64,000 nucleotides of DNA from Desulfatiglandales bacterium (GCA_963662465.1 OY759599.1:6880001-6944000); one strand, 5' to 3'. Positions 3,997-31,912 are shown, numbered from the stretch's first letter. Numbers and translations: made by a program. The notes: generated from the sequence alone by a model not told the origin.

Positions 3997-4014
3997 CGTG
4001 ATTCCTCCTTAAAA

Positions 4015-4323: not shown

Positions 4324-4340
4324 AATGTCTCTCCCTGTGA

Positions 4341-7522: not shown

Positions 7523-7523
7523 T

Positions 7524-9394: not shown

Positions 9395-9459
9395 TTATTG
9401 TTGAACACAACATAATGTAAGCGCGTTATATTGTCAAGCAAAATAATTCGACATGCAAC
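9395..9459 (-). promoter_or_regulatory. Sigma70-type promoter of operon copy 1 with overlapping inverted repeat
   Basis: Minus strand TTGACA (9437-9432)-17 bp-TATGTT (9414-9409). Plus-strand TTATTGTTG-aaca-CAACATAA inverted repeat overlaps the -10. Confidence 0.65.
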
Positions 9460-14646: not shown

Positions 14647-16008
14647 TTATGCTTGTTGATCTATTTCAATTAGTTTCGCCTTCTTCGATGGATCTTTCTC
14701 CAGGCTGTTGGGCGGTACGAGCTGAATCTTCGTTCGAACGCGCAATCGGGTCGATATTTCATCCTCCATCTCTTTTTTCAACCGACCCATTTCGCTTTCC
14801 GCAAGACCCTGAGCATATTCCACCTTCATTTGCAGAGGAGGCGTCACTTTGGGCGGCGGTCCGTCCAAAACAATGCGCATTTCCCCCGTTACCTTGGGCA
14901 AGAATCCGTCCACCACCCCTTTTATCCCTGCCGGAAATACGTTTACCCCCTTGACGATGAGCAGGTCATCCACCCGGCCCTTATATTTCATTCGCATGCC
15001 GGGCATACCGCAACTGCAGGGTTCGGTGATCAGTTCGATGATGTCCCCCAATCCGTATCGGAAAGACGGACCCGCCTGCCATTCCAATGCGGTGTGCACC
15101 ATTTCACCGATACCGCCGCCGTTGGACAAATCGATGGGTTCTTTTGTATCCGGGTCCACAATGTCCAGAAAGTGGTAATCTTCACAAACCAGATGCATGC
15201 CCTGGTATGTTTCGCTGTCGCAGGAAACGGCGCCGAATCCCCAGATACCGCCGGTACTATCGAAAATTTTCGCGTTGAACCCTTCCGTGAGTTGTTTGCG
15301 GGTTTCCGGAATTCCGGCTCCCGGTTCGCCTACTGCCATAATGATGTCAATACCGAGGTCACTGGCGGAAATCCCCGCGACTTCAGGGGCCTTGCGAATG
15401 ATGTATTCGGCAAAGGAAGGGATGCAAAACATGCCCCTGGCCTGGATGAGCTTGGCAAAATCCAGCACCCGCGCGACACCGGATTCCGCACCCACTGGTA
15501 TGCCAGCTATTCCCATGTATTCGTAGGCCCGCATGGGGACTATCCCCGCGAGCCACATGCTCAGCCCGGTTATGTGAAGCATGTAGTCCCCGGGCCGAAG
15601 CCCCGCTCGCCAGTAAGTGCGGGAGAGCACTTCACTCTGAATCTGTATGTCCCGGGCGGTAAAGGCTTCAAAAACAGGTACTCCCGTGGTGCCCGAGGTG
15701 GAATGAATGGCCCGGACATCTTTGGGGGAAGCGCACAGATATTCGCCAAACGTGTGCCCGTGTTTTTTACGCGAGATTTCCTGGCTTTCCCGATCACTTT
15801 TTTTGTCCATGAAGAGCGGCAGTTTCCTGAAATCCTCAATGGATTTGATGTCGCCGGGATGGGCGCCGCAACGGTCGAATCGTTCCTTGAAATAGCTGGA
15901 ATTGTCGTAAATATAATGCATCTGCTTTGTTAGTTTTTTCCATTGAAGGTCCCGCAGCTGTTCGCGGGGCATATGTTCCGCTGCCATATTCCAACAATCT
16001 CTTTCCAT
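14647..16008 (-). CDS. Phenylacetate-CoA ligase family (PaaK-like) CoA ligase
   Basis: HSTSGTTGVP, RYGLGD, GRVDDLLIVKGVNVFP. Confidence 0.9.
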   Translation of the reverse strand: MERDCWNMAAEHMPREQLRDLQWKKLTKQMHYIYDNSSYFKERFDRCGAHPGDIKSIEDFRKLPLFMDKKSDRESQEISRKKHGHTFGEYLCASPKDVRAIHSTSGTTGVPVFEAFTARDIQIQSEVLSRTYWRAGLRPGDYMLHITGLSMWLAGIVPMRAYEYMGIAGIPVGAESGVARVLDFAKLIQARGMFCIPSFAEYIIRKAPEVAGISASDLGIDIIMAVGEPGAGIPETRKQLTEGFNAKIFDSTGGIWGFGAVSCDSETYQGMHLVCEDYHFLDIVDPDTKEPIDLSNGGGIGEMVHTALEWQAGPSFRYGLGDIIELITEPCSCGMPGMRMKYKGRVDDLLIVKGVNVFPAGIKGVVDGFLPKVTGEMRIVLDGPPPKVTPPLQMKVEYAQGLAESEMGRLKKEMEDEISTRLRVRTKIQLVPPNSLEKDPSKKAKLIEIDQQA

Positions 16009-16047
16009 TACTCTCGACTCCTTATTTTTGCTTATTTGAAACGCACT

Positions 16048-17277
16048 TCATTCGGTCTTTTCGAAAATGTGGACGGCCATGGAGGCCTCTTCAACCCCGA
16101 CAAACCCACCGCCGTTTTCAGTCATTCCCATCCTGGCGCCCTCGACCTGCTTTTTCCCGGCTTCCCCCCGCAACTGCATCACGATCTCCGCAATTTGCCC
16201 AATGCCGGTGGCCCCGAGGGGGTGGCCCTTAGAGACCAGCCCGCCGCTCGGGTTTACCGGCATGGCGCCGCCGAGTGTGGTAACACCGGACCTGGCCGCT
16301 GCCACGGCATCGCCCCAGGGGCAAAATCCAAGACCTTCATACAAGATGATTTCTCCCATGGAGGTCGCATCATGAAGTTCCAGCACATCAATATCTTTGG
16401 GCCCCACACCCGCCATGGCGTAGGCCTTTTTACCCAAACGGGCTGATATGTGGTCCGGCCCGAATCCTTCAGGGCGATCCGTTCCAGAGCCTAGAATCGA
16501 TGCGAGAATTTTGACCTTCCGGGAATTTGGATGTTTTTTGAGAAAGGCCGAAGAGCAAAGAATCGCGGCGGCGCCGCCGTCGCCGATGGGTGAGCACATG
16601 GGCGCGGTCAGAGGAAAGACAACCGGGCGGGCTGCAATAATTTCTTCGACGGTCATGGGTTTACGGTACTGCGCCAGGGGGTTATGCACGCTGTGATTAT
16701 GATTTTTCGAGGCAACAACAGCCAGATCTTCCTGGGTCGTTCCGAAGGACTCCATGTGCAATCGGCAATGACTGGCGTACATGTCCATGGCGAAACTACG
16801 CTGATTGTCCAGGTCGGTGCCTCCCTTCCGCAGTGCTTCTTCCGCCCAGCGGGTTCGAAGTTCTTCCAGGATTTCCATGTCCATGCCCGCATCGTAGTTC
16901 CTGAACATCTTTTCCGTGTCTTCCAGGAACAGCTTTTCCGCACCCACCGCCATGGATACATCGGCGTGACCGCCTGCAATGGATTGCCAAGCCAGATGAA
17001 AGGCGGTTGAACCGGTGGCACAGGCATTTTCACAGTTGACAATGGGAATCCCATCGATTCCGGCGGCCCGGAGAGCGATCTGCCCCCGCACCATTTCCTG
17101 CCCGGTAACCAGACCTTGCATGGAATTGCCGAAAAATGCATTTTCCAGATCGCTTTTGAGGACGCCGGCATCTGAAATTGCGGCGGATATGGCTTCACCG
17201 GCCAGGGATTTGACATTCCGTTCCACAAATTTGCCGAACGGGGTATGACCAATACCGATTATGTATACATCTTGCAT
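16048..17277 (-). CDS. Thiolase family protein (SCP-x type)
   Basis: ENACATG, ELHDA, NPSGGLVSKGHPLGATG. Confidence 0.92.
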   Translation of the reverse strand: MQDVYIIGIGHTPFGKFVERNVKSLAGEAISAAISDAGVLKSDLENAFFGNSMQGLVTGQEMVRGQIALRAAGIDGIPIVNCENACATGSTAFHLAWQSIAGGHADVSMAVGAEKLFLEDTEKMFRNYDAGMDMEILEELRTRWAEEALRKGGTDLDNQRSFAMDMYASHCRLHMESFGTTQEDLAVVASKNHNHSVHNPLAQYRKPMTVEEIIAARPVVFPLTAPMCSPIGDGGAAAILCSSAFLKKHPNSRKVKILASILGSGTDRPEGFGPDHISARLGKKAYAMAGVGPKDIDVLELHDATSMGEIILYEGLGFCPWGDAVAAARSGVTTLGGAMPVNPSGGLVSKGHPLGATGIGQIAEIVMQLRGEAGKKQVEGARMGMTENGGGFVGVEEASMAVHIFEKTE

Positions 17278-17323
17278 TAGTGTCTCCAATTCTTCACGGA
17301 ATAAGGGTCGACCGGCTCGGTTA

Positions 17324-17570
17324 TCATTTCGCCAAGACAGGCGGTCGGCCCAAACGGGTTAAAATTTCCGGCATGGCAGCCGCCAGACGCTCTTTGATCT
17401 GATCCATCACCTGATCAGTGACCGACCAGTGATCGCATTCCAGCATGCAGAATTTCGCAGGCGGCATCAGTCCCGGCGGTTCATCGGCCACGATATCCTC
17501 GAATTGAAAAGGAAATGAGAGCTCCGCGTTATCTCCGTACCGCTTTATGTGCGCATCAGCGTTGCGTATG
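17324..17570 (-). pseudogene. Start-less ORF resembling an LMW-PTP-like C-terminus
   Basis: ...ELSFPFQFEDIVADEPPGLMPPAKFCMLECDHWSVTDQVMDQIKERLAAAMPEILTRL* has a similar pattern to the C-terminus of 732-1316. Confidence 0.4.
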
Positions 17571-17571
17571 C

Positions 17572-18549
17572 CTAATCCTTTTCCAACGCAGGAAAGACGG
17601 TCTGCCAGATGTCCATATCGGCAAGGATTTTATCGCATGCCAGATAGGGGTCCATCCGGTTTTCTTCAACCTGACTTGCATAGGTTTGAAATGTGGCATC
17701 ATTTTCAAGGGCCTGTTTTACCTTCCGAAGCAGCAACTCTTTCATAATCTGGGCGAAAATTCGTTTGCGATTCTCCCGGTTAAGCCGCTCTCCCGTGCCT
17801 GTCCGGGATAGAAATTGACGATGCGCTTCCACGGCCTCCATGCATTCCGCCGTGCCGACCCCTTCAATGGCCTGGGTTTGCACAATAGGCGGACGCCACT
17901 GGCCGGGTTTGATTCGAATATCCAGGATGGCGGCCAGATCTTCCTCGGTGACGTTGGGCTCACCCTTGTCGATCTTATTGATCACGAAAATATCGGCAAT
18001 CTCCATGATTCCTGATTTCATGGCCTGGATATGGTCCCCGGCCGTGGGGGTCAGCACCAGGATGTTGGTTTCGGCGATACAACGGACATCCAATTCCGCC
18101 TGTCCCACCCCGACGGTTTCGAGTAAGATAAAGTCTTTGCCGAAAGCGTCCATGAGGCTGACCACCGCATGAACCTTCTGGGGCAAACCGCCCAAATTGC
18201 CCCGGGTCGCCATACTCCGGATAAATACGCCTGGATCAAGAAAGGCAGACCCCATTCTTATGCGATCTCCCAGTATGGCGCCGCCGCTGTAGGGGCTGCT
18301 GGGATCACAGGCAACCACACCCACCGTGGTTGATGCTTTTCGCATGTTCATGGTCAACTGTGAGGTGAGTGTGCTTTTGCCCGCTCCGGGGGAACCTGTA
18401 ATGCCGATGCAATAGGCGTGTCCCAGATGATCCTTGATTTCTTTCATCAGGTCCGAGATGATCAACCGTTCGTTTTCAATCATACTGATCAGTCGGCTCA
18501 TGGCATAGCTATCGCCCTGCAGCATCTTTTCTGTCAAATCCAGTATCAT
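17572..18549 (-). CDS. meaB: MeaB/ArgK GTPase chaperone for B12 mutase
   Basis: GITGSPGAGKST, DPSSPYSGGAILGDRIRM, ETVGVGQ, NKID. Confidence 0.95.
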   Translation of the reverse strand: MILDLTEKMLQGDSYAMSRLISMIENERLIISDLMKEIKDHLGHAYCIGITGSPGAGKSTLTSQLTMNMRKASTTVGVVACDPSSPYSGGAILGDRIRMGSAFLDPGVFIRSMATRGNLGGLPQKVHAVVSLMDAFGKDFILLETVGVGQAELDVRCIAETNILVLTPTAGDHIQAMKSGIMEIADIFVINKIDKGEPNVTEEDLAAILDIRIKPGQWRPPIVQTQAIEGVGTAECMEAVEAHRQFLSRTGTGERLNRENRKRIFAQIMKELLLRKVKQALENDATFQTYASQVEENRMDPYLACDKILADMDIWQTVFPALEKD

Positions 18550-18591
18550 TTTAATTCCCCCTTTGCGGTCTGCGATCAAGCGATTTCCGGT

Positions 18592-18987
18592 TTAGGCATT
18601 GAGGTATTTAATAACATCTTCAGTGGGCGTATCCGGTCCGAAGATGGCATCAACACCCATCTTTTTGAGCGCCTCGATCTCATCACTGGGGATAATCCCT
18701 CCAACCAGAAATTTGACTTTTTTTCCTTTTTCTTTCAAGCCGTTGAGCACGGCAGGAATATCATGGGCATATCCGGAACTATAAAAACCCATGCCGATCA
18801 CGTCCACGTCCTCCTGCAAAGCGATTTCCACGACTTCCTCACAAACGCGGTATCGGATGAAAACGACTTCCTTGCCCAGGTCCCGAAACACTTCCGCAAT
18901 ATACCGGATACCGCGATCATGGGCATCCTGGTCGCACTTGGCCAGAAGCACCCGAACTTTATCATCAACCTTTACCGTAGTATCCAT
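18592..18987 (-). CDS. Cobalamin-binding small subunit of an acyl-CoA mutase
   Basis: DAHDRG (DxHxxG), GGIIP, IFGPDT. Confidence 0.92.
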   Translation of the reverse strand: MDTTVKVDDKVRVLLAKCDQDAHDRGIRYIAEVFRDLGKEVVFIRYRVCEEVVEIALQEDVDVIGMGFYSSGYAHDIPAVLNGLKEKGKKVKFLVGGIIPSDEIEALKKMGVDAIFGPDTPTEDVIKYLNA

Positions 18988-20683
18988 ACCCTAAAACCTC
19001 CTTTAACAACCCTTGAGTTTCACCCAATGTACAGTCTGCCCGAAAGGCGTCGATCATGGCCGGCATGACCCGGCCGCAGGATTGCGGCCATTCGTTTTTC
19101 ATCGCCAGAATGGCCGCACGCAAATGTTCCAATGCGGCCTGGGCCTTTTTTTCGTCCCGCTGTTCGCGGAAGGCCTTGACCCGTTCGATGGCGAATTTTT
19201 CCGTATCCGGCTTGATTTTGAACAGGGGTGGATGCACTTCGTCATCCACTGCGTATTTGTTCACACCGACAATGGGTCTCTTTCCGTCATCGATGGACTC
19301 CTGCCATTTGCGCGCTTCCCTGGCGAGTTGGCTCCGGAACCAGCCGGACTCCCAGCATTTCAGATAGCCGCCTTTTTCTTCAATTTTGTCCAATAACCGG
19401 AGCGCTTCTTCCTCGATTTTCCGGGTCAGGGATTCCACATAGTATGATCCGCCCAGAGGATCCATAACATTGGCGATATTGGTCTCGTAGAACAGGATCT
19501 GTCCGGTTCTCAGGGCGATTTGCGCCGCTTTCTGGGAGGGAATGTTGGAACATTCGTCATAGGAGGCGGCCCACACGCCGTCGGCGCCGGCGAGAACTTG
19601 GGCCAGGGCCATGATAGTCACCCGGATAATGTTGTTCTCCGGCTCCTTGTGGTGCAGTAGAGAACCGGCGGTTTGGGGGAAATTCCGTAAGCGCAGCGAT
19701 TCCGGGTTGGTGCAATTGAATTTATTTTTGAAGATGTTCGCCCACATTTTCCGCTTGGCCCTGAATTTGGCCACGGTTTCAAAAAGATCCAGGCTGGTGT
19801 GGTCGTGTCCGTAGTACCTGGGCACGAATTCGTCGGGATCGAGCCCTACGTTGATGCACTCCTGGGTGATGAACATGGCGGTGGCCAGGGTGAAAGCCAC
19901 TTCCTGGGCGGGGGTGGCGCCGGCTTCGCCGGGATTGTAACCGGTGACGCTGGCCACCTGGGACATGGGCACATGCTTTGTGAAGAACTTTACGCATTCG
20001 GATCCAATCTTGTACGCATGGCGGGGAGGATAGCCCGCGGCATCCCAGTACCAGGAATGGTACCACAGGTTGCTGACCTTCAGGCGCAACTTGTCCCAGG
20101 GTATCCCGTTTCTTTCCGCATAAACCAGGTACCCGGCAAGGATAGCGAGCTGCCCGTCCGGGCTGGCATAAAAAACTTCCATTTTGGTGAGGTCGCGGCC
20201 GTTGTACAGATCGTCGTAATCCCACATGGTGGAAAGGGACATGCCGTCTTTTCCAACACGGCCCCTGGCCTCGGGAGCGTCTGGATCGTATCCCTGCTGA
20301 GAGGGGATATCCAACGCAACGTTTTGAACCAGCAGTTTGTTGACGTCGTCCTGCCCGATAAAAAGACCCCACCCGATCCGTTCCAGGTACTCCATCCGTT
20401 CGCGGGTGTCCTTACTCATTCCAAGCGCTACGGGTTGGCGCATCATCCATCCATCGACCGTGTAGGGGACATTGCGAAATCCCCTGGTATAGGGATACTC
20501 CCCGGGAATGGCGACATCATCAAAGCTGATCCCTTCCATGTCGGCAGGGGTGTACATGGGTTTTATGGGAATCCCGCCGGACGTTCTGGCCGAAATCTCC
20601 TCATCATCCACCGTATCCTTGATACGTTGCCGCCCCTGTTTTTCCATGGCCGCCGCTTTTTCCTTGACTGATTTTTCAAACAT
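18965..20683 (-). CDS. Acyl-CoA mutase large subunit (MCM family), highly divergent
   Basis: PGEYPYTRG, GRVGKDG, AKFRA, DPLGGSYYVESLT; specificity motifs altered. Confidence 0.9.
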   Translation of the reverse strand: MFEKSVKEKAAAMEKQGRQRIKDTVDDEEISARTSGGIPIKPMYTPADMEGISFDDVAIPGEYPYTRGFRNVPYTVDGWMMRQPVALGMSKDTRERMEYLERIGWGLFIGQDDVNKLLVQNVALDIPSQQGYDPDAPEARGRVGKDGMSLSTMWDYDDLYNGRDLTKMEVFYASPDGQLAILAGYLVYAERNGIPWDKLRLKVSNLWYHSWYWDAAGYPPRHAYKIGSECVKFFTKHVPMSQVASVTGYNPGEAGATPAQEVAFTLATAMFITQECINVGLDPDEFVPRYYGHDHTSLDLFETVAKFRAKRKMWANIFKNKFNCTNPESLRLRNFPQTAGSLLHHKEPENNIIRVTIMALAQVLAGADGVWAASYDECSNIPSQKAAQIALRTGQILFYETNIANVMDPLGGSYYVESLTRKIEEEALRLLDKIEEKGGYLKCWESGWFRSQLAREARKWQESIDDGKRPIVGVNKYAVDDEVHPPLFKIKPDTEKFAIERVKAFREQRDEKKAQAALEHLRAAILAMKNEWPQSCGRVMPAMIDAFRADCTLGETQGLLKEVLGYGYYGKG

Positions 20684-20749
20684 ATGACCTCCTAAGGTTG
20701 ATATTTGTTTCTGGTTTTCCAGTGCTGCGCGCCACAGGCATTGGCCTTA

Positions 20750-21862
20750 CTAGGTTGCTTTTCCGGGACCGGCGCGGCGCTTTGACGAATCTATCGCGGT
20801 CTTTCTGACCTGTTGAACCATCTGAACCATCAAGTCCACAAGATAATCCGCTTTTTCACCTTCATTTTTTTTTCTTGAAACCACGGTCACCGGTCGTGTC
20901 TGAACCAGGAAGATATTGGCGGGAAAGGGGAGATCCGGATCTACTGCCCACTCCATATCCTGGGGGGCGCCATAATGGGTCTCCAATTGGACCGCATACT
21001 CCGCCAGTTTGATCGCCTCCATATCCGAAAGACAGGCCGCCTTTCGTTTGTCCGCGGGAACACTTTTTTCCTCTATGCCCGATGGACCGTAGTCGAGCAG
21101 TTTTTCCTTGTCGGAAATACTCTTTTTGATCAGGGTCATGGATTCTTTTTCGATGACGAATCGATCCGGCGCGACCAAACCCTGAACGATGCTTTCTCCC
21201 AGCCCCCAACTTCCTTCCAATACGACTTTCGACGGATCTCCGGTCAACGGGTGAACTGAAAACCCCACCCCCGCGGAGCGGGCATGAATCATTTGCAATA
21301 CGGTGACCCCCATAGCGCTGCCTTCGGCGGGAATATTCATTTTACGTCGATAGGTGATTGCCCGGGTGGTGAACTGGGAGGACCAGCATTGCACGATTTT
21401 TTCCACCAGATCCTCAGGACCCCGAACATTTAGAAAGCTATCGTATTGGCCGGCAAAGCTGGAGTCTTTCAGGTCTTCCGACAGCCCGCTGGACCTTACC
21501 GCCACCGGGACGTTCTCCGCTCCGGCGGCGCGGCATAATTCCTCATAACAGGAGATAATGTACCGACGCATGACATCGGGCAGGGTCTGGCTATCAATGA
21601 TGTCGCGGATGACCCGACTCTCTTCCTGGAGATCCGAGATATCGTTTCGATCAGGAGGGATACTTTCCATGTAACGATTGACCCGTGCGGCCGTGCCGGT
21701 CTCTTTCACAAACCGGTTGTAGGCATCGGTTGTAATGGCAAAACCGTTCGGCACCGGCAAACCGGCGTGTCGCATTTCCGCCAACTTGGCACTTTTTCCG
21801 CCCACCCTGTCAACGGATATTTCGCCGATTTCATGAAACCAGACTACAAAATTATCTTTCAC
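20750..21862 (-). CDS. PEP-synthase N-terminal ATP-binding protein (phenylphosphate synthase PpsB-like)
   Basis: VGGKSAKL, VAVRSS, SFAGQYDS, GLGESIV, QDMEWA, QTRP. GTG start at 21862 with RBS GGAGG. Confidence 0.88.
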   Translation of the reverse strand: MKDNFVVWFHEIGEISVDRVGGKSAKLAEMRHAGLPVPNGFAITTDAYNRFVKETGTAARVNRYMESIPPDRNDISDLQEESRVIRDIIDSQTLPDVMRRYIISCYEELCRAAGAENVPVAVRSSGLSEDLKDSSFAGQYDSFLNVRGPEDLVEKIVQCWSSQFTTRAITYRRKMNIPAEGSAMGVTVLQMIHARSAGVGFSVHPLTGDPSKVVLEGSWGLGESIVQGLVAPDRFVIEKESMTLIKKSISDKEKLLDYGPSGIEEKSVPADKRKAACLSDMEAIKLAEYAVQLETHYGAPQDMEWAVDPDLPFPANIFLVQTRPVTVVSRKKNEGEKADYLVDLMVQMVQQVRKTAIDSSKRRAGPGKAT

Positions 21863-21928
21863 GAATTGCCTCCTCCAGATCTCTGTTGCACCGGGTTTTA
21901 CCCCTGGTTCTGAAACCACAGCAACTTC

Positions 21929-23608
21929 TTAATCATCCAGAAAATAAACGACGCCCATGTTGGCATCTACTCGGATACGCTGTCCGGTTTTAATCTTCTT
22001 CGTTCCTTCAAATACATTGAGCACCACGGGAATGCCGAATTCACGGCCCACCACGGCCGCATGGGCCAGACTGCCGCCCCGATCGATCACCGCGCCTTTG
22101 ATCAGATTGAAAACCGGTGTCCAACTGGGCGCGGTATTGACGGCCACCAGAATATCGCCCTCCTCAACAAGGCGCAGATCTTTTTCATCCAAAATCACCC
22201 GTGCAGGTCCTTCGCAAATACCGGTTGACCCTACGACTCCATACAGGTCCGCCTTAAGTTCCGGATCCACCTCCGGCATGGCGCCCATGAGGGCTTTGAA
22301 AAATATGGGATCAGCGAGACTGGCCAAATGAGGACCGATCTCTTCGTGAGATACCCCTTCCTTGAGCAAGAAAGGCGGGTTCCCTTCCTCGCACCACCGG
22401 CCCCAGTCCGCACGACGTTTTTCAATGATCGGGCGCAGGTCGTAGTGTTGGGGGGCGTAAATGATCTTGTGGATTTCGTCGGGAAGGAGAAAAAATATGT
22501 CTTCCTTTTTATCAAAGGCGCCGGCGGCCACATACCGCTTACCGATGGCGATAAACGCTCTTCGGGTAATGGCAAAACAGTAGTCTTCACAGTAATAGGA
22601 ATGTTCTTCGCCATAGGAACCGGCTTGCTGGGCAACTTTGAGCAATTTGGCGAAATAATCTTTTTGCTGGGCCGGAATCTTGGCCAAAATCTCCTTTTCG
22701 GCGGCTTCTCGTTCTTCTATGGCTTTTTTCCGCTGTTTTTCGAGATCGAATTCACTAGACCGTTTCATGTACATTTTGATGATGCCCAGGGGCGGAAATG
22801 GTTCCTCGATCCATGAGGGATCGATCATCTCGGCCCGGCGCTGGCTTCGCCATCCGTCTTCCTGGAGAAATGCATAAAACTGATCGAGCCAAAGTTTGCC
22901 GCTTTCGTTTTCTTCCAGCAGGGGAATGATGTCTTTCGCGGAGTTTTCGGTCAGAATTTCGGAGATCCCCATCTCTTTGGCAGCTTTGGAAAGATTCCAC
23001 ATTCTGCGGTCCACTTGAAAGATCTTGTTGTCGAAACCGGTTATCAACTTGAGAAAGGTGGGATGGGTGTCATCGATTTGCAGCAGCTGCTTGCATACGT
23101 TTTCAAGGAGAACATAGGGGAACCAGGTGATGTACATGCCGAGAACATGAAAATACCACATCTTGCGCGTCACCGAAAAGCAGTCCTCCACATGCTCCCA
23201 TAGCGCCATGTTCGAAGCGTTGTCCACATCAAACTGTTTCAACCGCTCATAAAGCGGCATTAACTCCTTGACCAGCATGCCTTTCCAGTTTTTGTCGTAG
23301 TCCTCCAGATAGGGCTGAATGAAGCTCCTGAATTTTTTTTCCCTTTCCTTTGCCTCTTCGGGGTCATCGACCCGGGAAAAACCGTAATAAACGCCTCCGT
23401 TTTTTAGCCGGAAAAACGTCGTTCTGGAAAACGGCAGACTGACCGCTTCCATAGCGCCAGCGCCGCCGTGATAGCAAAACATACCCCAATACCACGCGAA
23501 AAGGGGCGTCCACGGCGGGGTACAATGGCCTTCGTCCAATAGCCAGATGGGTGTTGCTTTAAAATCCAATTCCGGGTCAAAATCGATACACGTGGTCAGA
23601 TCTTTCAT
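21929..23608 (-). CDS. PEP-utilising mobile-domain protein (phenylphosphate synthase PpsA-like)
   Basis: C-terminal TAPSWTP and GGSLAHAAVVGRE (phospho-His), large helical N-terminal region. Confidence 0.88.
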   Translation of the reverse strand: MKDLTTCIDFDPELDFKATPIWLLDEGHCTPPWTPLFAWYWGMFCYHGGAGAMEAVSLPFSRTTFFRLKNGGVYYGFSRVDDPEEAKEREKKFRSFIQPYLEDYDKNWKGMLVKELMPLYERLKQFDVDNASNMALWEHVEDCFSVTRKMWYFHVLGMYITWFPYVLLENVCKQLLQIDDTHPTFLKLITGFDNKIFQVDRRMWNLSKAAKEMGISEILTENSAKDIIPLLEENESGKLWLDQFYAFLQEDGWRSQRRAEMIDPSWIEEPFPPLGIIKMYMKRSSEFDLEKQRKKAIEEREAAEKEILAKIPAQQKDYFAKLLKVAQQAGSYGEEHSYYCEDYCFAITRRAFIAIGKRYVAAGAFDKKEDIFFLLPDEIHKIIYAPQHYDLRPIIEKRRADWGRWCEEGNPPFLLKEGVSHEEIGPHLASLADPIFFKALMGAMPEVDPELKADLYGVVGSTGICEGPARVILDEKDLRLVEEGDILVAVNTAPSWTPVFNLIKGAVIDRGGSLAHAAVVGREFGIPVVLNVFEGTKKIKTGQRIRVDANMGVVYFLDD

Positions 23609-23729
23609 TTTTCTCCTCCTGTAATCAGAGCGGCTATAGTGGGGATGAACTAAGGAATAGGTTATATGGAATATTCCGACGTTATATTGTCACCTCCTTT
23701 TTGTACGAAAATACCGTTGTCATAGAGCA

Positions 23730-23794
23730 AAACTGACTTGGTCAATTTAATGCAAGCGAAGAATAGTGTCAAGCGGAATAATTCGAAATGCAAA
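23730..23794 (-). promoter_or_regulatory. Promoter of the ppsAB-like/mutase operon with candidate MarR operator
   Basis: TTGACA (23772-23767)-17 bp-TAAATT (23749-23744). Imperfect palindrome AAACTGACTTGGTCAATTT overlaps -10/+1. Confidence 0.65.
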
Positions 23795-23877
23795 CATATG
23801 TGATGCCTAAAAATCCAAATCCTGTTTTTTAAGAACTGGTCGTAAATAGATCCCGTGCTTGTCCCTGGTTTGTGCGG

Positions 23878-24387
23878 TTATGACAACTCGGGCATGGATG
23901 CCCACAGCCATTTTCTAAGTTTCTTCGATATCTCTCTGAGGTCGTCAATCTGATTGCCGGTCAGACATGATGTGGCAACTGAACTGGCCTGCTGCATATC
24001 GGGCAAACTGTTTTTCACAAGTTCTATCCCTTCTCGCGTAATGGTGATGGTGATAGACCGCCGGTCTCCGTCCGTGGGTCCCCTTTTGACGAGATCTCCC
24101 TTTTCCAGGATATCGATGGCTCTTGTGATGGCATGTTTGGAGCGGTAGACCCGTTTGCTGATATTGGTTGGGGTCATCTGGCCCCCGTTTGAAATCAGCA
24201 GATACAGAATATTCAACCGGGTCTGGTCCTGGCCGTGTTTTTTAAGCTGTGATTCCAGAAACCGGTTTGCCGCCTCGGCCGCATACATGAGCAGAATCAG
24301 ACTGTCGAATTTAACGATTTCGGAAATCTGATCGATTTCTTCGGCCAGGTCTTTGATGGCCATCTGATCTTCCCTTTTAACACTCAT
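23878..24387 (-). CDS. MarR family transcriptional regulator
   Basis: ITRAIDILEKGDLVKR, DRRSITITITREG. Confidence 0.92.
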   Translation of the reverse strand: MSVKREDQMAIKDLAEEIDQISEIVKFDSLILLMYAAEAANRFLESQLKKHGQDQTRLNILYLLISNGGQMTPTNISKRVYRSKHAITRAIDILEKGDLVKRGPTDGDRRSITITITREGIELVKNSLPDMQQASSVATSCLTGNQIDDLREISKKLRKWLWASMPELS

Positions 24388-24519
24388 AGACTTTCACCTC
24401 TCAATGGGTCTTTCTGAAGATTATGGTTCCAAAAAATCGGATCAAATTTTGAGTATCAAAGAGTCAGCCGTTCAAGTCAAGATGAAATATCCCTTGTCGA
24501 ACAATAGGGCATGGGAATG

Positions 24520-24681
24520 TCAACCGTTTTCCTTTTCCACTGTTGGGAGATCGCTTTCTCGCTGTGCCATGACCGTTTCAAATTCTCCCAACAGGGCCTG
24601 TGCAAATACGGTATCCTCCAGGTTGGCGTCGACTTCGATGAGTTCGACGCGGTCGTTGGTTAGCAGGCGTTTTAACTCCTT
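24520..24681 (-). pseudogene. C-terminal remnant of a Tm-1-like (UPF0261) gene
   Basis: 53 codons KELKRLLTNDRVELIEVDANLEDTVFAQALL...* fused directly to the end of duplicate copy 2. Confidence 0.65.
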
Positions 24682-24795
24682 TTGTCTATTTTTCAGAGAA
24701 TTCAGGAGCCGGAATAGAAGGTTGGTGCTTTTTTATATTCTGAATTCCGGTCCCTGACTCCTGAATTTTTGGGTTGCGGGCGCAGCCCGCGTTAG

Positions 24796-26463
24796 TTAGT
24801 AAGATCTTCCTTTGAGTTCCCAGTGCTTCTTCAAGCCGTACTTGTCGGCGATGATTTTGTAGCAGTTATAGCCGCAGGATCCCCGGATGCCCCCGCCCAC
24901 GTGGGTGGTGGCCGAACAGAGGAAGAGGTTGTCTACCGGCGTCTGGTACTGACTCAATTCGGGAATCGGTCGGAACCGACCCATCTGACTCGGGATCATG
25001 GCGCCCACGCTCACGGAACTGTTGATAAAGTTGATGTTTTTCCGGCTGGTTTCCATGCAGGTGTCAAAGTAGCTGTCGATAACATTTTTTTCGGTCATGT
25101 TATCGGAATAAATCTGGTACTGTTTCAGCAGTTCCTTGGGGAATTCTCTTCTCATCTCGGCCCATCTGGCTTCGGAGAAGTATTTCATCTCTCCGGTATA
25201 CTGCTCGATCTGAACGAGATGCTTTCCTTCGGGCACCCGTGTTTTATCCCAGATAGAGTCCGGACCGGCGAACCAGCATAACTTTTTGGGAATTCCGTAC
25301 ATGGAGCATTCCAGTTTTTGCCTGTCCGCTATATATTCCACGTCTTTCGGACCGATGAGGGTTCGGGGCATGGCATTGCAGTCGGGGTTGAAGGCCGCCG
25401 CCTTGAACTCGGTTGGCTCGTGCATGGCAAAGGTTCCCCAGAATGCCGCACACATCCGGTCGTAGCGGATATTCTTGACCTTTCGAACCAGGTTGTAGTC
25501 GAACTGGTCTTCTCCGATAAACCGCAGGAGGGTCTGGTTGAGGTCCACGTCGGAAACCACGCACTGTTTAGCCGTAATTTCATCCCCGTGTACGGTGCGA
25601 ACACCGGTGGCCTTTCCGTTTTCCACCAGAATTTTTTCGATCTCGTTTTCCACGAAAAATTTTCCGCCCCTGGACACAAAGGCCCGTTGCATGGCATGGG
25701 CAACCGAGTGGGAACCACCCATTACCGTTGCCGGGGGGGTGATGTTCAAGCAGGTCATGATCGTATGGATTACGTTAAACAATCCCAAAGGGTCTTCCGG
25801 CCAGTTTCCGGTGCTGGTTTGAAGGCCCCGCAAAAAATAACACTGCATCTCAGGACTATCGAAAAGTTCGCGAGCCATCTCGGTACCGCTCATCACCTCC
25901 CACCGTGGATCCATACCGGACTCGGGGTCCTGAAGCAGCTGTTCCAGGGCGTCCGGGGTGCCAAATGGCGTGGGCGGGTTGAACATATAATCGCGATAGG
26001 CTTTTTTCCATTTCTTCTCTACCCGTTCGAGAAGATCAAAGGCCGTGTCCGCATCCCTTTGTGAAAATCTGGAAATCTCCTTTAAGGTTTTTTCCAGGTT
26101 TTCGCTGGATCGGGCGGTTTCACCAGTGTTATGGTCCACCACTTGGTAAACGGGATAGGTGACCAGGCAGGTTTCATCGTCAAAGATCATGCCCTGGCCC
26201 GCTTCGGGGAATATTTGTTTGAGTCCGTATTCTCCGAGGTTGAAATCCTCGTAGCAGGGCGTCGTATAAAAACGAACATTGGTTGCGCAGGTGTTGGTGA
26301 TGAATCCGGGCAACGGCACTTCATCCCCGCACAACCCCCCTCCGATTTCCATGTTTCGTTCAAAAACCGCGGTCTGTACACCGGCATCCTGGAGGTAAAG
26401 CGCCACCAGTAGCCCGTTTGCGCCGCCTCCGATTACCAATGCGTCATAGCTTTTGTCCGCCAT
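24796..26463 (-). CDS. Phytoene-dehydrogenase-like FAD oxidoreductase (555 aa), copy 2
   Basis: Same protein as 2329-3996. Confidence 0.9.
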   Translation of the reverse strand: MADKSYDALVIGGGANGLLVALYLQDAGVQTAVFERNMEIGGGLCGDEVPLPGFITNTCATNVRFYTTPCYEDFNLGEYGLKQIFPEAGQGMIFDDETCLVTYPVYQVVDHNTGETARSSENLEKTLKEISRFSQRDADTAFDLLERVEKKWKKAYRDYMFNPPTPFGTPDALEQLLQDPESGMDPRWEVMSGTEMARELFDSPEMQCYFLRGLQTSTGNWPEDPLGLFNVIHTIMTCLNITPPATVMGGSHSVAHAMQRAFVSRGGKFFVENEIEKILVENGKATGVRTVHGDEITAKQCVVSDVDLNQTLLRFIGEDQFDYNLVRKVKNIRYDRMCAAFWGTFAMHEPTEFKAAAFNPDCNAMPRTLIGPKDVEYIADRQKLECSMYGIPKKLCWFAGPDSIWDKTRVPEGKHLVQIEQYTGEMKYFSEARWAEMRREFPKELLKQYQIYSDNMTEKNVIDSYFDTCMETSRKNINFINSSVSVGAMIPSQMGRFRPIPELSQYQTPVDNLFLCSATTHVGGGIRGSCGYNCYKIIADKYGLKKHWELKGRSY

Positions 26464-26481
26464 CGTGATTCCTCCTTAAAA

Positions 26482-26790
26482 TTATGCTGCCTGCTCTTGT
26501 AGTTCAGCCTGTTTTTTTTTACCCCTGCGAAACAAAAGACCGAAACCCGAAAATAGAATCCAGGGGCGGCAACAGACCATCCAAAGTATTTGTCGAAGGT
26601 CGCTCGGTTCAATAAAGATTCTCACCTGCCAGTTTACGGGCTCAAGCGTCTCCATGGTCATGAGCATGCGGACCGGTTCTTTACCGTCTTCCGACGGGGT
26701 CAGGGTTTCCGGTACCATGTCCGTGGTTTCGATTTTGGCCACCTCTGCCAAAAGCAGCGTTCTCCCCAAGCCTGTTGATCGAATAAGCAT
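26482..26790 (-). CDS. Small hypothetical protein (102 aa), copy 2
   Basis: Same protein as 4015-4323. Confidence 0.8.
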   Translation of the reverse strand: MLIRSTGLGRTLLLAEVAKIETTDMVPETLTPSEDGKEPVRMLMTMETLEPVNWQVRIFIEPSDLRQILWMVCCRPWILFSGFGLLFRRGKKKQAELQEQAA

Positions 26791-26807
26791 AATGTATCTC
26801 CCTGTGG

Positions 26808-28424
26808 TTAAAAAAGTCCGGCAGCCTTGCCCGGCGCAAAGATTTCAGGTTCCTTCCACCATTTTTCGATCCCCAGATCTTCCGCAATGGTCTGCGTTGC
26901 ACAATAGCCGGGACCGTAAGTGATCATTCCGCCGGAATGGGTGCAGGCTCCGCACATGTATAATCCCTTGATGGGGGTGGAATGTTCCGAAAGCACCTCA
27001 TTGGGTCGGTAAAATCCCATCTGAAGGGGGGTATAGGCCCCCTGCTTGAAACAGCCCTGTTTCATGTTCGGAAATTTGTTTTCAATGTCCAGCGGCGTAC
27101 TCAGGTAATCCCATATGATGGTATCGTCGTTAATGTTGGTCGCATACTGGCTCAATTTATTTTTGCATCGTTCCGCATGTTCCCGGCGCATCTCGTACCA
27201 TGCTTCAGCCCCGCCGTTTTCCAGTTTGTAGGGGGCTTCCTGGGTGATGAGTCCTACGGCGCCGCCGTTCATCACCCGGATGGGGTCATGGACCGAGGGA
27301 AAGCAACAGGAAAAACCGGAATCGATGAGCTGGCCCTTCTTGATGGCCTCAAAATGATCGATGAGGTCCTGATCGCTGTCGTAGCCCAGCACGTAGATCA
27401 GCGCATTGTCCAGTTCGGGATTGGATTCCGCGATTTTAAGCCGGGGTCTTTCCTTCAACGCCATGTGGACATTGAAGTAGCTCCAGTCGGTGTATTTCCA
27501 GTTTTTTATGCGTTTCAGCAGGTAGTCATCCAGGTGTTCCGGTCCTACCATGTCGATGAGTGTCTGCTGGGGGTTCAGGGAGCTGGCCACAAACTTTCCG
27601 GCCGTGATTGTGGCGCCGTCCTTTAATGCCACCCCTTTTACCTCGCCGTTTTCGATGATTAAATTTTGAACGAGCATTCCGGAAAGAATTCTGCCGCCGT
27701 TTTCCACAAAGTTTTTGGCCATCAGATGGGTCACGTGGTGTGATCCGCCCCGGCAGAGCCTGAAATGCCATCCCCGGTTGATCAATAGGGGGACCAGGAA
27801 TCCCACCCCCTCCAGATCGTAGTCCATTCCCCACATGGTGGCCAGATAGAGAAACAGTCCCCGCACCCGTTCGTTTTCGAACAGGTCGTCAACGATTTGC
27901 TTCGGCGTCAACCCGGTCATTTCCTCGTCTCGCCGGATGATGGGATTGGCGTTGAGTTTTGCCACCTGTTCCAGGGGCGGGATGGGATTGACATAGCTGG
28001 CCGGCGCCAGAAATAGATCAACGGCTTCCTGGGACCACTGGGCGAACTCCCTGAAGGTCTCTGCGTCTTTCTCGGAGAATTTGCGAATCGATTCGCAGGT
28101 CCGTTCAGGGTCTTTGTACATAGCCAGATGGGTGCCGTCCGAGAAGGGCATGACCACCTGCAGGTCGGGGTAGATCCATTTTAGGTCGTACCGGGTATCC
28201 AGTTCCAAATCCGCGAGAGGCGGGGCATATTCCACCATCATATGGTAGATGGCATGGGTATCGTGGAGAAACCCCGGAGATGTAACCTGCTCTGTGGCCA
28301 ACCCCCCGCCGATCTCATAGCGCTTGTCTAGCAAAAGAATTTTCAAACCGGCTTTTGCCAGGTAGGTGGCCACGGTCATTCCGTTGGGTCCCGCACCGAT
28401 GATAATTCCGTCATAATCAGCCAT
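26808..28424 (-). CDS. Phytoene-dehydrogenase-like FAD oxidoreductase (538 aa), copy 2
   Basis: Differs from copy 1 at a few residues (WGMDY/WGLDY, PLLINRGWHF/PLFINRGWHL, NEV/NEI). Confidence 0.9.
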   Translation of the reverse strand: MADYDGIIIGAGPNGMTVATYLAKAGLKILLLDKRYEIGGGLATEQVTSPGFLHDTHAIYHMMVEYAPPLADLELDTRYDLKWIYPDLQVVMPFSDGTHLAMYKDPERTCESIRKFSEKDAETFREFAQWSQEAVDLFLAPASYVNPIPPLEQVAKLNANPIIRRDEEMTGLTPKQIVDDLFENERVRGLFLYLATMWGMDYDLEGVGFLVPLLINRGWHFRLCRGGSHHVTHLMAKNFVENGGRILSGMLVQNLIIENGEVKGVALKDGATITAGKFVASSLNPQQTLIDMVGPEHLDDYLLKRIKNWKYTDWSYFNVHMALKERPRLKIAESNPELDNALIYVLGYDSDQDLIDHFEAIKKGQLIDSGFSCCFPSVHDPIRVMNGGAVGLITQEAPYKLENGGAEAWYEMRREHAERCKNKLSQYATNINDDTIIWDYLSTPLDIENKFPNMKQGCFKQGAYTPLQMGFYRPNEVLSEHSTPIKGLYMCGACTHSGGMITYGPGYCATQTIAEDLGIEKWWKEPEIFAPGKAAGLF

Positions 28425-28549
28425 AATTTTATCTCCTATTTAAATACTCATCAAAGCGTGATCGGTTGATAAATTGTCGTCATATCCCATCTATCTCTTT
28501 CATTGCCGCTGTGTCGGACAAGGAGCCGAGATATTCGGAACTTCTTTTT

Positions 28550-29989
28550 TTACACAACTCCCCGGGAAAAGGCGGATACTGCGGCAATTGCCGCTATTTT
28601 CTTTTTTTCGAAATGCTCATCTTGTGCCATAAACTGTTTTATATCATCCATAAGGGTGACTTCATTTTCGATAAAATGGGTCCCCAAATCGCCCGTTATA
28701 AATCGCGGGTTTTCCATGACGGCTTTGTGGAACGCTATATTATTCTTGACTCCGGCGATGACGAATTCGTAAAGGGCCCGACGCATTCTGATGATGGCTT
28801 CATCTCGATCCCTTCCCCATACGACGAGCTTCGATATCATGGAGTCGTAAAAAGGGGGTATGGTGTAATGGGCATGGACACCGCTATCCACTCGAATTCC
28901 GATCCCTCCGGGGGCCTGATACGCTTTGATCTTGCCCGGTGTGGGAACAAAGTCTTCCAACGGATCCTCTGCGTTGATGCGGCATTCGATGGCCCATCCG
29001 TTCATGGGAACCGCTTCCTGCTTGATGCTGAGGGACAATCCGGAAGCGATCCGTATTTGCTCTTTGACGATATCGATTCCGGTAACCATTTCCGTAACCG
29101 GATGTTCTACCTGAACCCGGGCATTGACTTCGAGAAAATAAAACTTTCCATCGGAGAATAGGAACTCTACCGTTCCCGCCCCTTCGTAATTTACCCATTT
29201 GGCGGCGTTTACGGCAATCTCTCCAATTTCTTTCCGCAGTTCAGAGGTTACCGCCGGTGAGGGCGCTTCCTCTATCAGCTTTTGATGCCTCCGCTGAATT
29301 GAACATTCACGTTCGCCTAAATGGATGACATTCCCTTTTGAATCTCCCAATATCTGAATTTCAATGTGACGCGGGTTGTTTAGGTATTTTTCTATATACA
29401 CATCGCCCAGTCCGAAAGTGGTGGAAGCAATCGCCTGTGAATAACCAAGGGCATCTTGCAATTGATCATCGTCCATCACAATGCTCATTCCGATTCCCCC
29501 GCCACCACCGGAAGGCTTGATAATCACCGGGTATCCAATGTCGTTGGCCATGCTTCTTGCCTGGTCATATTCCGCTACGCATTCATCCGTTCCCGGAACC
29601 ACGGGGACACCCGCTTTCTCCAATTCGCGCCTGGCAGCTATTTTATCACCCAAAAGTTCGATTACTTTGCTGGAGGGGCCGATGAATTTTATGCCTTCCC
29701 GTTCGCAGGCAGCGGCAAATTGTGAATTCTCCGCAAGAAAGCCGTATCCGGGGTGGATCGCATCTGCGCCGCTTTCCTCGGCGACTTCAAGGATCTTTTG
29801 AATGTTGAGGTAGCTGGCCCTTGCCGGTGGCGGACCGATTAAATAGGCTTCATCCGCATATTGGGTAAAGGATGCATTTTTGTCCGCCTCCGAATAAACG
29901 GCAACGGAAGGGATTCCGAGTTCCCTGCAAGCCCGCATGATCCGAATCGCTATTTCTCCACGATTTGCGATGAGAATTTTGTTGAGCAT
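28550..29989 (-). CDS. Biotin carboxylase, copy 2
   Basis: As 6083-7522 with a few substitutions. Confidence 0.95.
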
Positions 29990-29990
29990 T

Positions 29991-31736
29991 TTACGCCACC
30001 ACCATCAAAATGTCTTCGATGTCGATTGTTTCCCCTTCACTGGTCATGATCTCTTTTACCTCTCCGCTGTGGGGCGAATTGAAGAGTCTCTTCATTTTCA
30101 TTGATTCGATCACGACAAGCAAATCGCCTTCCTCTATTTTATCGCCCACCTTCACTTCGATGGACAGTATCATTCCCGGCATTTCGGAGATCACCGCGCC
30201 GGCAGGCAACGCTTTAGATGCATTGGCGTTATTGGGCGCTTCCGCCGCTTCTATTGCTTTGCCTTTTCCATCCCCCTTCATCACAGGTGTAACCTTCACG
30301 TTGAACACTTCGCCATCAACATCCACACTGTATTCCGCCGGAAATTCGGATGGTGGATTGTAAGGCGCCGACGTTTTCAGGTCAGGGGGGGAGGCTTTCA
30401 CGGGCGCTCCCGGCTTAACCGCTTTTCCGGGGATCAGAATCTTTAGCAATAGTTCGTCATCGGAAAGTTCCGGACCATTTTCCGCACGTAGCGCCTCGAT
30501 GGATTTATCGTATCCGTCAGACTCCCAATCAAGAAATTCCTTTCTCCTGGGTAAATTCATTATTTTGTCCAAAATATTCTGGTCCATGGGCGCAATCAGT
30601 TCACCGTAATACCCAAGAGAGTACTTGATAACCTCATCCGTAATCCTTCCATACCGCTTTCCGGAGATAACATTCTCCATGGCCTGGACGCCTACGATCT
30701 GAGAGAAGGGTGTTCCCATCACCGGATATCCAAGCTCCTTGCGGACCCGTACGATTTCCTCCAGAATTTCGTCCAAACGGTCTTCCATTTTTACTTCCCT
30801 TAGCTGCCGCGTAAAATTGGTCATCATTCCGCCCGGCACCTGATGTTCAAAATGAAAAAGATCGTATTCCGCCGGTACACCCATGGGCAGCCCCTCATTT
30901 TCCGCTATTTTTCTGAAATGCCGCGATACCGTTGCGAGTGCATCCTCATCAAGATCCGATGTGAAGCCCAGACGACGTACATTTTTTAAAACCGTTTCCG
31001 CTGAAGGCAAGGAGGTTCCATTGGCGAGAGGCGAGATGGCGGTATGTAATGTTGTGACGCCGAGTTTAACAGCCTCCAGATAACACAGGGGTGCAAGCCC
31101 GGAATTACAATGGGCGTGGAATTCAATGGGGATTCCGTCGCAATTCTTTTGAATCGCGGAAATCAATCTACAGGTGGCCTCCGGCGTCAGAAGCCCGCCT
31201 CCATCCTCGATCATGATGGCATCCACATAATCTTTAGTTTCTGAAATGAGTCCCGCTTTTCGCCCCCAATATTCATCGGTGTGAGCCGGACTTAAGCTAT
31301 AGCCTACTGTTGTGATAACGCCGGCGCCTTCGGCTTTGGCGATGCGGGCGAAATAGACGAATCGCTCCATATTGTCCTGCCAATCGCAAACCCAGAAAGA
31401 CTTGATTCCGTTGGCAATGGATCGTTTTATCCAAAGCGTAATGATATCTCGGGGCGTACTGAGGTCAAAAGTTGAGAGACTGCCCGTTTGATAGGATCCT
31501 CGAAGAGGTGTTTTTCTAAGCAAACGGGAAAGGACTTTGATTCTTTCCCACGGATCCTCATTGAGATTTCGAACAAGCACGGTAAATGCCTGAGAACCGA
31601 CCGTGGCAATGGCTTTGTATCCGACCTGGTCCATGACCTCTGCAATAGGGGTCACCATGTCCGTCCTCATCATATAGCCCCAAAGGCTTTGTTGAGCATC
31701 GCGCAAAGTTTGATCCACAAAGTTAATCTTGTCCAT
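29991..31736 (-). CDS. PycB/OadA-like carboxyltransferase plus biotin carrier, copy 2
   Basis: As 7524-9269 with a few substitutions. Confidence 0.9.
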
Positions 31737-31861
31737 GGTTGATATCGGCCCCCTTTAGCAAATGCGTTTAATCCGGTTTAAAATTTGCTCACTTGTTTTT
31801 TCCATCTTTTTGATGCATAATTTTGCGGTTCGTGTTTGTAATTGCCTGAACGTTGTAAAGC

Positions 31862-31912
31862 AATATAATGTAAAAGAATGACAGTGTCAAGAGAAATAAT
31901 AACATGTGCAAC
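31862..31912 (-). promoter_or_regulatory. Sigma70-type promoter of operon copy 2
   Basis: TTGACA (31890-31885)-17 bp-TATATT (31867-31862). Confidence 0.65.

Follow-up and report, generated by a model that had tools for sequence, protein, structure and literature searches.

The window analysed here is a stretch of 64,000 nucleotides from a Desulfatiglandales bacterium (GCA_963662465.1, OY759599.1:6880001-6944000), whose 8.16-Mb genome is a single contig (G000; window G000:C1:6880001-6944000). Numbers marked G000 are genome coordinates and all others are window positions. A preliminary description, made from the sequence alone, had picked out positions 14647-31912 as a candidate anaerobic catabolic system, and all the genes that it named are present there, co-oriented on the minus strand. 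One operon encodes a carboxyltransferase (CT) fused to a biotin carrier protein (BCCP; 29991-31736), a biotin carboxylase subunit (BC; 28550-29989; 801 bits to NF006406, cut-off 739), a flavoprotein resembling CrtO and phytoene dehydrogenase (A; 26808-28424), a small protein of 102 residues (26482..26790) and a second flavoprotein (B; 24796-26463). The other encodes a two-component kinase, with PpsA-like subunit A (21929-23608; substrate-binding and phospho-His swivel) and PpsB-like subunit B (20750-21919; ATP-grasp, PPDK_N), followed by the large (MutL, 18965-20683) and B12-binding small (MutS, 18592-18987) subunits of an adenosylcobalamin (AdoCbl) mutase, a MeaB G-protein chaperone (17572-18579), an SCP2-type thiolase (16048-17289) and a PaaK-like coenzyme A (CoA) ligase (14647-16008). 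The closest solved structures are SCP2-thiolase and BbsB for the thiolase, and PaaK and 2-hydroxyisobutyryl-CoA synthetase for the ligase. Between the operons stands a MarR regulator gene (23878-24387), present once in G000.

What was flagged is the eroded second copy of a system made up of two operons. Positions 24677-31736 are repeated at 2210-9269 with 98.75% nucleotide identity, the first-copy genes from CT to flavoprotein B lying at 2329..9269 on the minus strand, and 14069-23624 is repeated beyond the left edge of the window with 94-99% identity. Intact copy 1 thus covers window 1-9269 plus 10 kb past that edge. Its first operon runs CT/BCCP, BC, flavoprotein A, small protein, flavoprotein B, a short-chain dehydrogenase/reductase (SDR) of the alcohol dehydrogenase type (1411..2202), a low-molecular-weight (LMW) phosphatase with a CX5RS loop (732..1370) and a Tm-1-like (UPF0261) gene, the last three again on the minus strand and found in copy 1 only; the 5' part of the Tm-1-like gene (1..684) runs past the window edge and the intact kinase-mutase operon follows. 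That second operon, which has its own promoter, consists of ppsA, ppsB, mutL, mutS, meaB, a second LMW phosphatase gene, thiolase and ligase, and downstream of the ligase lie a GGR-like flavoprotein, a corrinoid adenosyltransferase and a FadL/TodX channel, in that order. In the flagged copy, marR stands where copy 1 has the SDR-phosphatase-Tm-1 genes, and a deletion of about 400 bp has left a 3' remnant of the second phosphatase gene (17327-17527, minus strand, residues 135-201), which is intact at G000 6872323-6872928. The preliminary description had seen copy 1 continue into the SDR, LMW phosphatase and Tm-1-like genes but overlooked the duplication of the ppsA-to-ligase operon (G000 6869652-6878996, just left of the window), and the copy that it flagged lacks those three genes and keeps a remnant of the second phosphatase gene. 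An assembly artefact was ruled out as the cause of the duplication, because depth in public contigs was about twofold over duplicated segments relative to the unique marR and squalene-synthase segments (about 89-105 vs 53-54 in X1 and 63-75 vs 36-42 in X2, public runs that may be the source of the window assembly itself) and the contigs fork at the copy boundaries.

Both operons carry the same promoter or operator motif, as had been proposed. It lies on the minus strand at 31861..31911 (carboxylase-flavoprotein operon, copy 2), 23743..23793 (kinase-mutase operon) and 9408..9458 (upstream of the copy-1 carboxylase operon), and its core is a σ70 -35/-10 pair. None of 100 shuffles reached the two pairwise matches with the region in front of ppsA, so that the motif exceeds chance, and a matrix built from the three window sites finds a fourth, not itself in the matrix, at 39 bits in front of the other ppsA copy. 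Apart from these four operon starts, no site in the 8.16 Mb exceeds 17 bits, the score of the next best. The two operons are probably co-regulated.

The mutase has the fold of methylmalonyl-CoA mutase (MCM) and 2-hydroxyisobutyryl-CoA mutase (HCM). An AlphaFold model of MutL (pLDDT 93.4) is matched best by HCM (4r3u; Z 50.3, root-mean-square deviation 1.6), HCM and MCM both scoring Z 49-50. In common with HcmAB, isobutyryl-CoA mutase (ICM) and MCM, it has a DxHxxG small subunit, MeaB, a nearby corrinoid adenosyltransferase gene and the residues that contact B12 and adenosyl. With residues numbered through alignments to 1e1c and the human enzyme, the equivalents of Y243, E247, Q330, E370, R87 and R326 are kept; the first four are presumably B12 or adenosyl contacts. 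In contrast, specificity sites are replaced: Tyr/Phe/Ile89 by Pro, Gln197 by Ser, Arg207 by Trp (or Asp) and His244 by Asn or Ser. We take Q197, R207 and H244 to be contacts of the migrating carbonyl or acyl group.

Ten further positions lie along the barrel axis, where we assume from the MCM literature that they line the tunnel for the pantetheine arm of CoA. They are small and polar (Ser/Thr/His) in 5/5 canonical mutases, with a summed volume of 1041, whereas all nine window-clade proteins have one invariant bulky set (Met, Glu, Phe, Lys, Tyr, Phe; three aromatics) with a volume of 1395, about 350 cubic angstroms larger. As a control, 16 equally divergent sister-clade mutases, mostly encoded among acyl-CoA dehydrogenases and dehydratases, keep smaller polar residues there (volume 1178). 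On sequence grounds, these substitutions suggest that the tunnel is plugged and the substrate CoA-free, and the mutase is, with somewhat better than even confidence, CoA-independent. That a CoA substrate binds through the barrel centre is described in PMC3958899, which bears on that point alone and not on the ten positions. The association with an aryl kinase and phosphatase further separates this mutase from HCM, ICM and MCM.

At least 21 clusters among the 120 matches listed are at least 62% identical to the mutase, and those with an organism name are metagenome-assembled genomes (MAGs). Within its class, G000 is the only one of 209 genomes with a close mutase (0/10 congeners), and it is likewise the only one among 401 of the phylum. 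A literature search, with subscription journals outside its coverage, found no description of the kinase-mutase cluster or of a B12 aryl-shift enzyme, and we regard the mutase as an undescribed subfamily. More distant relatives also occur: two mutases of the bulky-tunnel clade, 41% identical (L092, G537:C27; L093, G466:C13), lie with flavoprotein A/B-like genes, a two-subunit hydantoinase, an SDR and a thiolase, and a kinase was not found in these two genomes. Divergent acyl-CoA-mutase paralogs are numerous in some genomes of the phylum (L095, L125-L135), and in G433 as many as four large subunits lie within 15 kb. The window itself holds a second mutase cluster (48366-63053) with Etf, acyl-CoA dehydrogenase, GntR, TRAP transporter, PaaK-like ligase and xanthine-dehydrogenase-like genes, which strikes us as reminiscent of indoleacetate clusters; its two-subunit mutase belongs to the canonical branch and has altered C-terminal pocket residues.

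Like PpsAB with UbiD, CreHI and PasAB, the kinase is a split RPH-like dikinase with a phospho-His swivel. PpsAB systems have a linked UbiD gene, whereas the window, as previously stated, contains none; three are found elsewhere in G000, the nearest megabases away. Subunit A is 26-28% identical to PpsA of its own genome and to hpe-like plasmid proteins, the hpe/acv-like plasmid clusters serving throughout as stand-ins for authentic HpeH, Hpe and Xcc sequences, and it forms a separate branch. It lies below all PRK08296 cut-offs (194 bits vs 578) and has Ile for T/S in the T/SxxGGxxxH motif. Its clade accounts for 6 of 45 distinct rows in a FastTree phylogeny (support 100), all adjacent to a mutase and outside the PpsA/HpeH branch, and for 7 of 24 rows in an IQ-TREE phylogeny; the short, partial kinase sequences of L070 and L075 were left out. 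Ten close-mutase loci were available outside G000 (G401, G402, G403 and L069-L075). Eight have a kinase gene; in the remaining two, the contig breaks off within the mutase genes or shortly upstream of them. The kinase tracks with the mutase and not with the carboxylase, because two of the four long loci have kinase and mutase without a linked carboxylase, while genomes of the carboxylase clade lack a close mutase and use kinases of other clades.

G000 also has a canonical-clade PpsAB pair (G000 2158856-2161952, L007), above the PRK08296 cut-off, and a PpcB-type UbiD at 4.025 Mb (TIGR02724 508.9, cut-off 468.95). The latter lies in a cluster with CoA ligase, Tm-1, UbiX and Hcr-like genes (G000 4016000-4026100, L106), 1.9 Mb from the canonical pair, as a split phenol pathway. 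Sister kinases of the window clade occur in 67 of the 209 class genomes. Their cluster at G000 2659000-2678900 (L003, L004) and in L161-L175 contains one or more short PpsA-like kinases together with PpsB, flavoprotein B, an SDR, an aldehyde oxidoreductase, Etf/Hdr and an ARMT1-like phosphatase, flavoprotein A and the small protein being present in some cases; it could be an anaerobic CreHI-type alkylphenol route.

In the CT, Glu replaces the carbamylated Lys and the pyruvate-binding Arg is lost, while the metal-binding HxH and the catalytic Thr are retained, if the roles that we assume for these residues hold. The CT clusters with hpe/acv-like plasmid CTs in a clade of 25 rows, apart from OadA and PycB (support 100/100), and within it belongs to a subclade of 10 rows with Glu at the carbamylated-Lys position. 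The tree and the residues rule out a pyruvate carboxylase or oxaloacetate decarboxylase, and G000 has a separate OadA/PycB-like gene. CT matches at E<=1e-100 occur in 19 of 401 phylum genomes, seven of which, besides G000, fall in the window subclade (57-69% identity). The fetched flanks of four of these seven hold PpsA/B-like genes, often with LMW phosphatase, Tm-1 and thiolase genes. None of the five CT-subclade genomes tested carries a close mutase, and the carboxylase module is therefore an anaerobic variant of Hpe that occurs independently of the mutase. A sister CT of the window clade is found on pRB98 of Rhodococcus oxybenzonivorans (L079) with a split PEP-utiliser/PPDK-like kinase, DUF35 and thiolase genes and a tyrosine-type phosphatase, an aerobic parallel.

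Half of the window system is thus known: its kinase and biotin carboxylase, with the phosphatase, the CoA ligase and a cleavage enzyme, make up a pathway for hydroxyaryl ketones represented by Hpe of Rhodococcus rhodochrous GD02, AcvABCDEF of Sphingobium SYK-6 and XccABC of Aromatoleum EbN1. According to PMC9618137, HpeHI phosphorylates 4-hydroxyacetophenone and acetovanillone, HpeCBA carboxylates the phosphorylated ketones only, HpeD dephosphorylates the product, a ligase and a cleavage enzyme follow, and xccBCA of EbN1 adjoins hpeHI homologs. The portions consulted of the Acv preprint (bioRxiv 10.1101/2022.04.28.489975) and of PMC12167813 agree with this scheme. As in the window, the dikinase has two components and the PycB-like CT lacks pyruvate determinants, and related clusters contain a Tm-1 gene. 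However, window kinase A falls outside the PpsA/HpeH/CreH clade (26-28% identity vs about 45% pairwise within it, as given in PMC12167813), BCCP is fused to CT instead of separate, LMW phosphatases replace HAD phosphatases and a PaaK-like ligase replaces AcsA. The window system therefore works like Hpe/Xcc, but its kinase clade, phosphatases, ligase and subunit layout set it apart from the members of that pathway, and it adds to that logic the flavoprotein pair, the SDR and the B12 mutase module.

Flavoproteins A and B (FadAB) are 28.7% identical to each other. Limonene dehydrogenase CtmAB and delta24-steroid desaturase, as characterised in the relevant portion of PMC11061730, are likewise paralogous pairs of about 60 kDa with about 27% mutual identity and an N-terminal His-flavinylation motif, G-F-L/R-X-N/S-T/L-H-A. 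Flavoprotein A matches seven of its eight positions, including the His. In CtmAB and the desaturase both subunits have the motif, whereas flavoprotein B has Cys for the His and the window adds a small third gene. The likeness is set by the published description and the motif; CtmAB performs allylic oxidation, whereas the gene context in the window points to a benzylic one. Close orthologs of flavoprotein B travel with the mutase. The preliminary description had spoken of a flavoprotein trio, but its third member is the small non-flavin protein, which is conserved, belongs to no Pfam family, has only unnamed clusters as Atlas matches and is usually encoded between the flavoprotein genes. VAO-family activity on 4-isopropylphenol is reported in PMC6017454.

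The close mutase homologs span three phyla, and all four loci longer than 12 kb combine the mutase with an SDR, a phosphatase and a candidate benzylic oxidoreductase. Locus L071, from a metagenome, repeats the window system (flavoproteins 72% and 83%, BC 78%, MarR 64%), down to a receiver gene after the ligase, where the flagged copy has a stand-alone receiver-domain gene (14016..14540, minus strand). In the Thermoleophilia MAG G402 (the only one of 301 genomes of its class to have a close mutase), flavoprotein B (70%), SDR (64%), thiolase (72%) and ligase (70%) are conserved and the order mutase-MeaB-thiolase-ligase is kept. Orthologs of the carboxylase/flavoprotein and mutase operons sit together in both, as the co-occurrence predicted beforehand would have it, and across the two the MarR and SDR orthologs are 60-64% and 64-66% identical. 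For the biotin enzyme, G402 substitutes a four-subunit set resembling the acetophenone carboxylase ApcABCD, although below NCBIfam cut-offs; as far as PMC13677872 describes it, this architecture carboxylates ketones, not always acetophenone.

The Gammaproteobacteria MAGs G401 and G403 depart further from the window. A p-cresol methylhydroxylase (PCMH)-type flavoprotein (E 6e-152 to 1dii), with an SDR and in G403 a cytochrome c, takes the place of FadAB, a HAD phosphatase that of the LMW enzyme, and a SnoaL protein is present. Their mutase loci have no linked carboxylase, ligase or thiolase, and the best ligase matches (51-52%) are on other contigs. Both hydroxylases have Gly at the position of PCMH Glu427, which we take to enlarge the benzylic pocket. 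A vinylphenol-reductase-like gene adjoins the module in G402, and a flavoprotein of the same Pfam family occurs in L070. Since partners are exchanged for non-homologous equivalents, these comparisons hint at a 4-alkylphenol derivative as the substrate, at side-chain hydroxylation of alkylphenols as the role of FadAB and at a ketone as the compound that is carboxylated. The system is real, conserved and modular, and we hold its architecture with good confidence. The earlier proposal that phosphorylation, carboxylation, B12 rearrangement and thiolysis are combined on an alkyl-aromatic compound gains support from the co-occurrence in L071 and G402; its further claim that the combination is undescribed fails for the half that is the Hpe/Acv pathway (PMC9618137; bioRxiv 10.1101/2022.04.28.489975).

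The duplicated two-operon system likely degrades alpha-branched 4-alkylphenols, such as 4-isopropylphenol, without oxygen; as a whole this is the best explanation that we can offer, at clearly less than even confidence. The substrate class and the order of steps are just as tentative, every chemical step being drawn from homology and gene swaps. Flavoproteins A and B would hydroxylate the benzylic carbon with water, yielding a tertiary alcohol that a dehydrogenase could not oxidise, and the two-component kinase would convert it into an aryl phosphate, shielding the phenolic O-H from the adenosyl radical and providing an anionic handle. The mutase would then shift the aryl group by one carbon (a neophyl shift) without CoA, from 2-arylpropan-2-ol to 1-arylpropan-2-ol. 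We liken this step to the conversion of 2-hydroxyisobutyryl- to 3-hydroxybutyryl-CoA by HCM, as presented in PMC7888143, with an aryl phosphate replacing the thioester. The SDR, whose matches in the PDB give no pointer to its substrate, would oxidise the secondary alcohol to an arylacetone, which the biotin enzyme would carboxylate as HpeCBA does phospho-acetophenones; an LMW phosphatase would strip the phosphate, and the PaaK-like ligase and SCP2 thiolase would release hydroxyphenylacetyl-CoA and acetyl-CoA. This is the one scheme in which every gene has a single part and a mutase is required. An alpha-substituted arylacetate would suit both the PaaK-type ligase and the SCP2/BbsB-type thiolase, and the Glu427-to-Gly change with the alkene-reductase-like neighbours fits a branched side chain. 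It is conceivable, if somewhat short of an even chance, that an MCM-family enzyme has dropped CoA for an AdoCbl-dependent 1,2-aryl migration on a kinase-made aryl phosphate, with phosphate as the radical-protecting group that opens branched and quaternary alkylphenols to attack under anoxia.

Several observations weigh against the aryl-shift scheme. The literature searched yielded no example of an enzymatic neophyl shift. The argument built on the ten tunnel positions stays at the level of sequence. Loss of R82/R87 is not diagnostic, because it is also seen in mutases in an acyl-CoA context. That no kinase was detected (E<=1e-25) in four genomes with related R87-less mutases speaks for the coupling of kinase and mutase, but these genomes are 83-99% complete and represent two clades only, so that any R87-kinase link is correspondingly provisional. 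The kinase may serve the carboxylase in G403, since its sole detected kinase is the mutase-linked one and yet an Hpe-type carboxylase lies on another contig. In the flanks retrieved, the sister kinases commonly sit with flavoprotein B, besides aldehyde oxidoreductase and ARMT1-like phosphatases, and without a mutase; the aryl phosphate may therefore be what FadAB acts on, and the first two steps would then be swapped. The assembly of mutase, MeaB, ligase, SDR and thiolase also fits a classical CoA route, and the ligase is about equally close to 2-hydroxyisobutyryl-CoA synthetase (E 1.7e-41) and PaaK (9.7e-44). Such a route would have the ligase activate 2-arylpropionate or 2-aryl-lactate, an HCM-like mutase form 3-aryl(-3-hydroxy)propionyl-CoA and the SDR and thiolase finish, with kinase, carboxylase and phosphatase salvaging 4-hydroxyacetophenone lost by decarboxylation. 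To our knowledge, all characterised members of the mutase family use acyl-CoA. HCM does so (PMC7888143, as far as consulted), and it is the best structural match; the ligase resemblance and the gene order retained in G402 point the same way. We nonetheless consider this route unlikely, given the bulky barrel axis in 9/9 proteins, the lost carbonyl-contacting residues, a kinase tied to the mutase rather than the carboxylase, and loci (G401, G403) with no adjacent ligase or thiolase.

The mutase might alternatively perform a CoA-free acyl shift, in which a phosphorylated alpha-branched aryl ketone of the isobutyrophenone type (from 4-isobutylphenol) is linearised as by ICM, carboxylated and thiolysed to 4-hydroxybenzoyl-CoA. 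This too uses each gene once, keeps the migration chemistry of the MCM family and fits both the PchF/FadAB, SDR and ketone-carboxylase logic and the SCP2 thiolase, but the equivalents of Q197, R207 and H244 are all replaced, and a PaaK-type ligase suits an arylacetate better than an aroylacetate, and hpe-like clusters use an acetoacetate-CoA ligase; we think it quite unlikely. With a quaternary substrate, kinase and mutase would act first on 4-tert-alkylphenols or bisphenol A, the aryl shift making a benzylic C-H and the phosphatase freeing the phenol for hydroxylase, SDR and carboxylase. Two phosphatases would permit two phosphorylation cycles, the kinase-mutase-phosphatase core exists without a linked carboxylase, and the G403 carboxylase is sister to that of plasmid pBAR1 of Sphingomonas bisphenolicum. 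This is improbable: the family is deep, spans three phyla and better fits a natural than a synthetic substrate, and the later steps would give a quaternary beta-keto acid. The bisphenol-stilbene route was rejected, since no stilbene dioxygenase (RPE65 family) was found in any of the four genomes searched and the SnoaL protein is unrelated to the NTF2 protein of pBAR1. By the published figures, the only basis of the comparison, Pas-alpha of D. anilini (554 residues, 27-28% identical to PpsA; PMC7500099, in part) is as distant from PpsA as the window kinase, which also tells against our scheme and would allow a phosphoamidate synthase like PasAB acting on an arylamine or hydroxy-heteroaromatic compound. 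The length matches as well (PMC7500099), and distant mutase relatives sit with caprolactamase-like hydantoinases; in the close loci, however, the partners are a vinylphenol-reductase-like gene and enzymes of the PCMH type, whose substrates are 4-alkylphenols, and the idea is decidedly improbable. Least of all do we expect two unrelated operons side by side, the kinase feeding a UbiD ring carboxylase elsewhere. D. anilini recruits carboxylases across clusters, as PMC7500099 relates, and G000 has the PpcB-type UbiD at 4.025 Mb; but G000 already possesses, besides that UbiD, a canonical kinase pair (2.159 Mb), which makes this alternative weak, and the operons share the four-site motif and co-occur in L071 and G402.

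We know of no settled anaerobic attack on branched benzylic alkylphenols (isopropyl, sec- and tert-alkyl, bisphenols), for which benzylic hydroxylation either cannot occur or stops at a tertiary alcohol. The aryl-shift scheme makes the cluster a complete, expressible candidate enzyme set for that attack and its mutase a B12 subfamily whose members may dispense with CoA and shift an aryl group. It also provides a testable explanation for the phosphorylation of phenols by aromatic kinases, a point that the parts consulted of PMC9618137 and PMC12167813 leave unsettled. The conservative reading would still extend Hpe/Xcc logic to anaerobic lineages, with new clades of kinase, carboxylase and flavoenzyme.

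Other genes lie between and beside the copies. An insertion sequence element at 11181-13789, with a 755-residue transposase and about 10 near-identical copies in G000, splits a 106-residue ABM-domain gene that is intact in copy 1 (G000 6868625-6868942) and in L071. A chemoreceptor gene between the copies (9730-10905) is 94% identical to G000 972027-973196, which has a FadL paralog and a thiolase gene nearby. Immediately upstream of copy 2 is a single-copy squalene-synthase-like gene (32033-33091), seen in none of the homologous loci examined.

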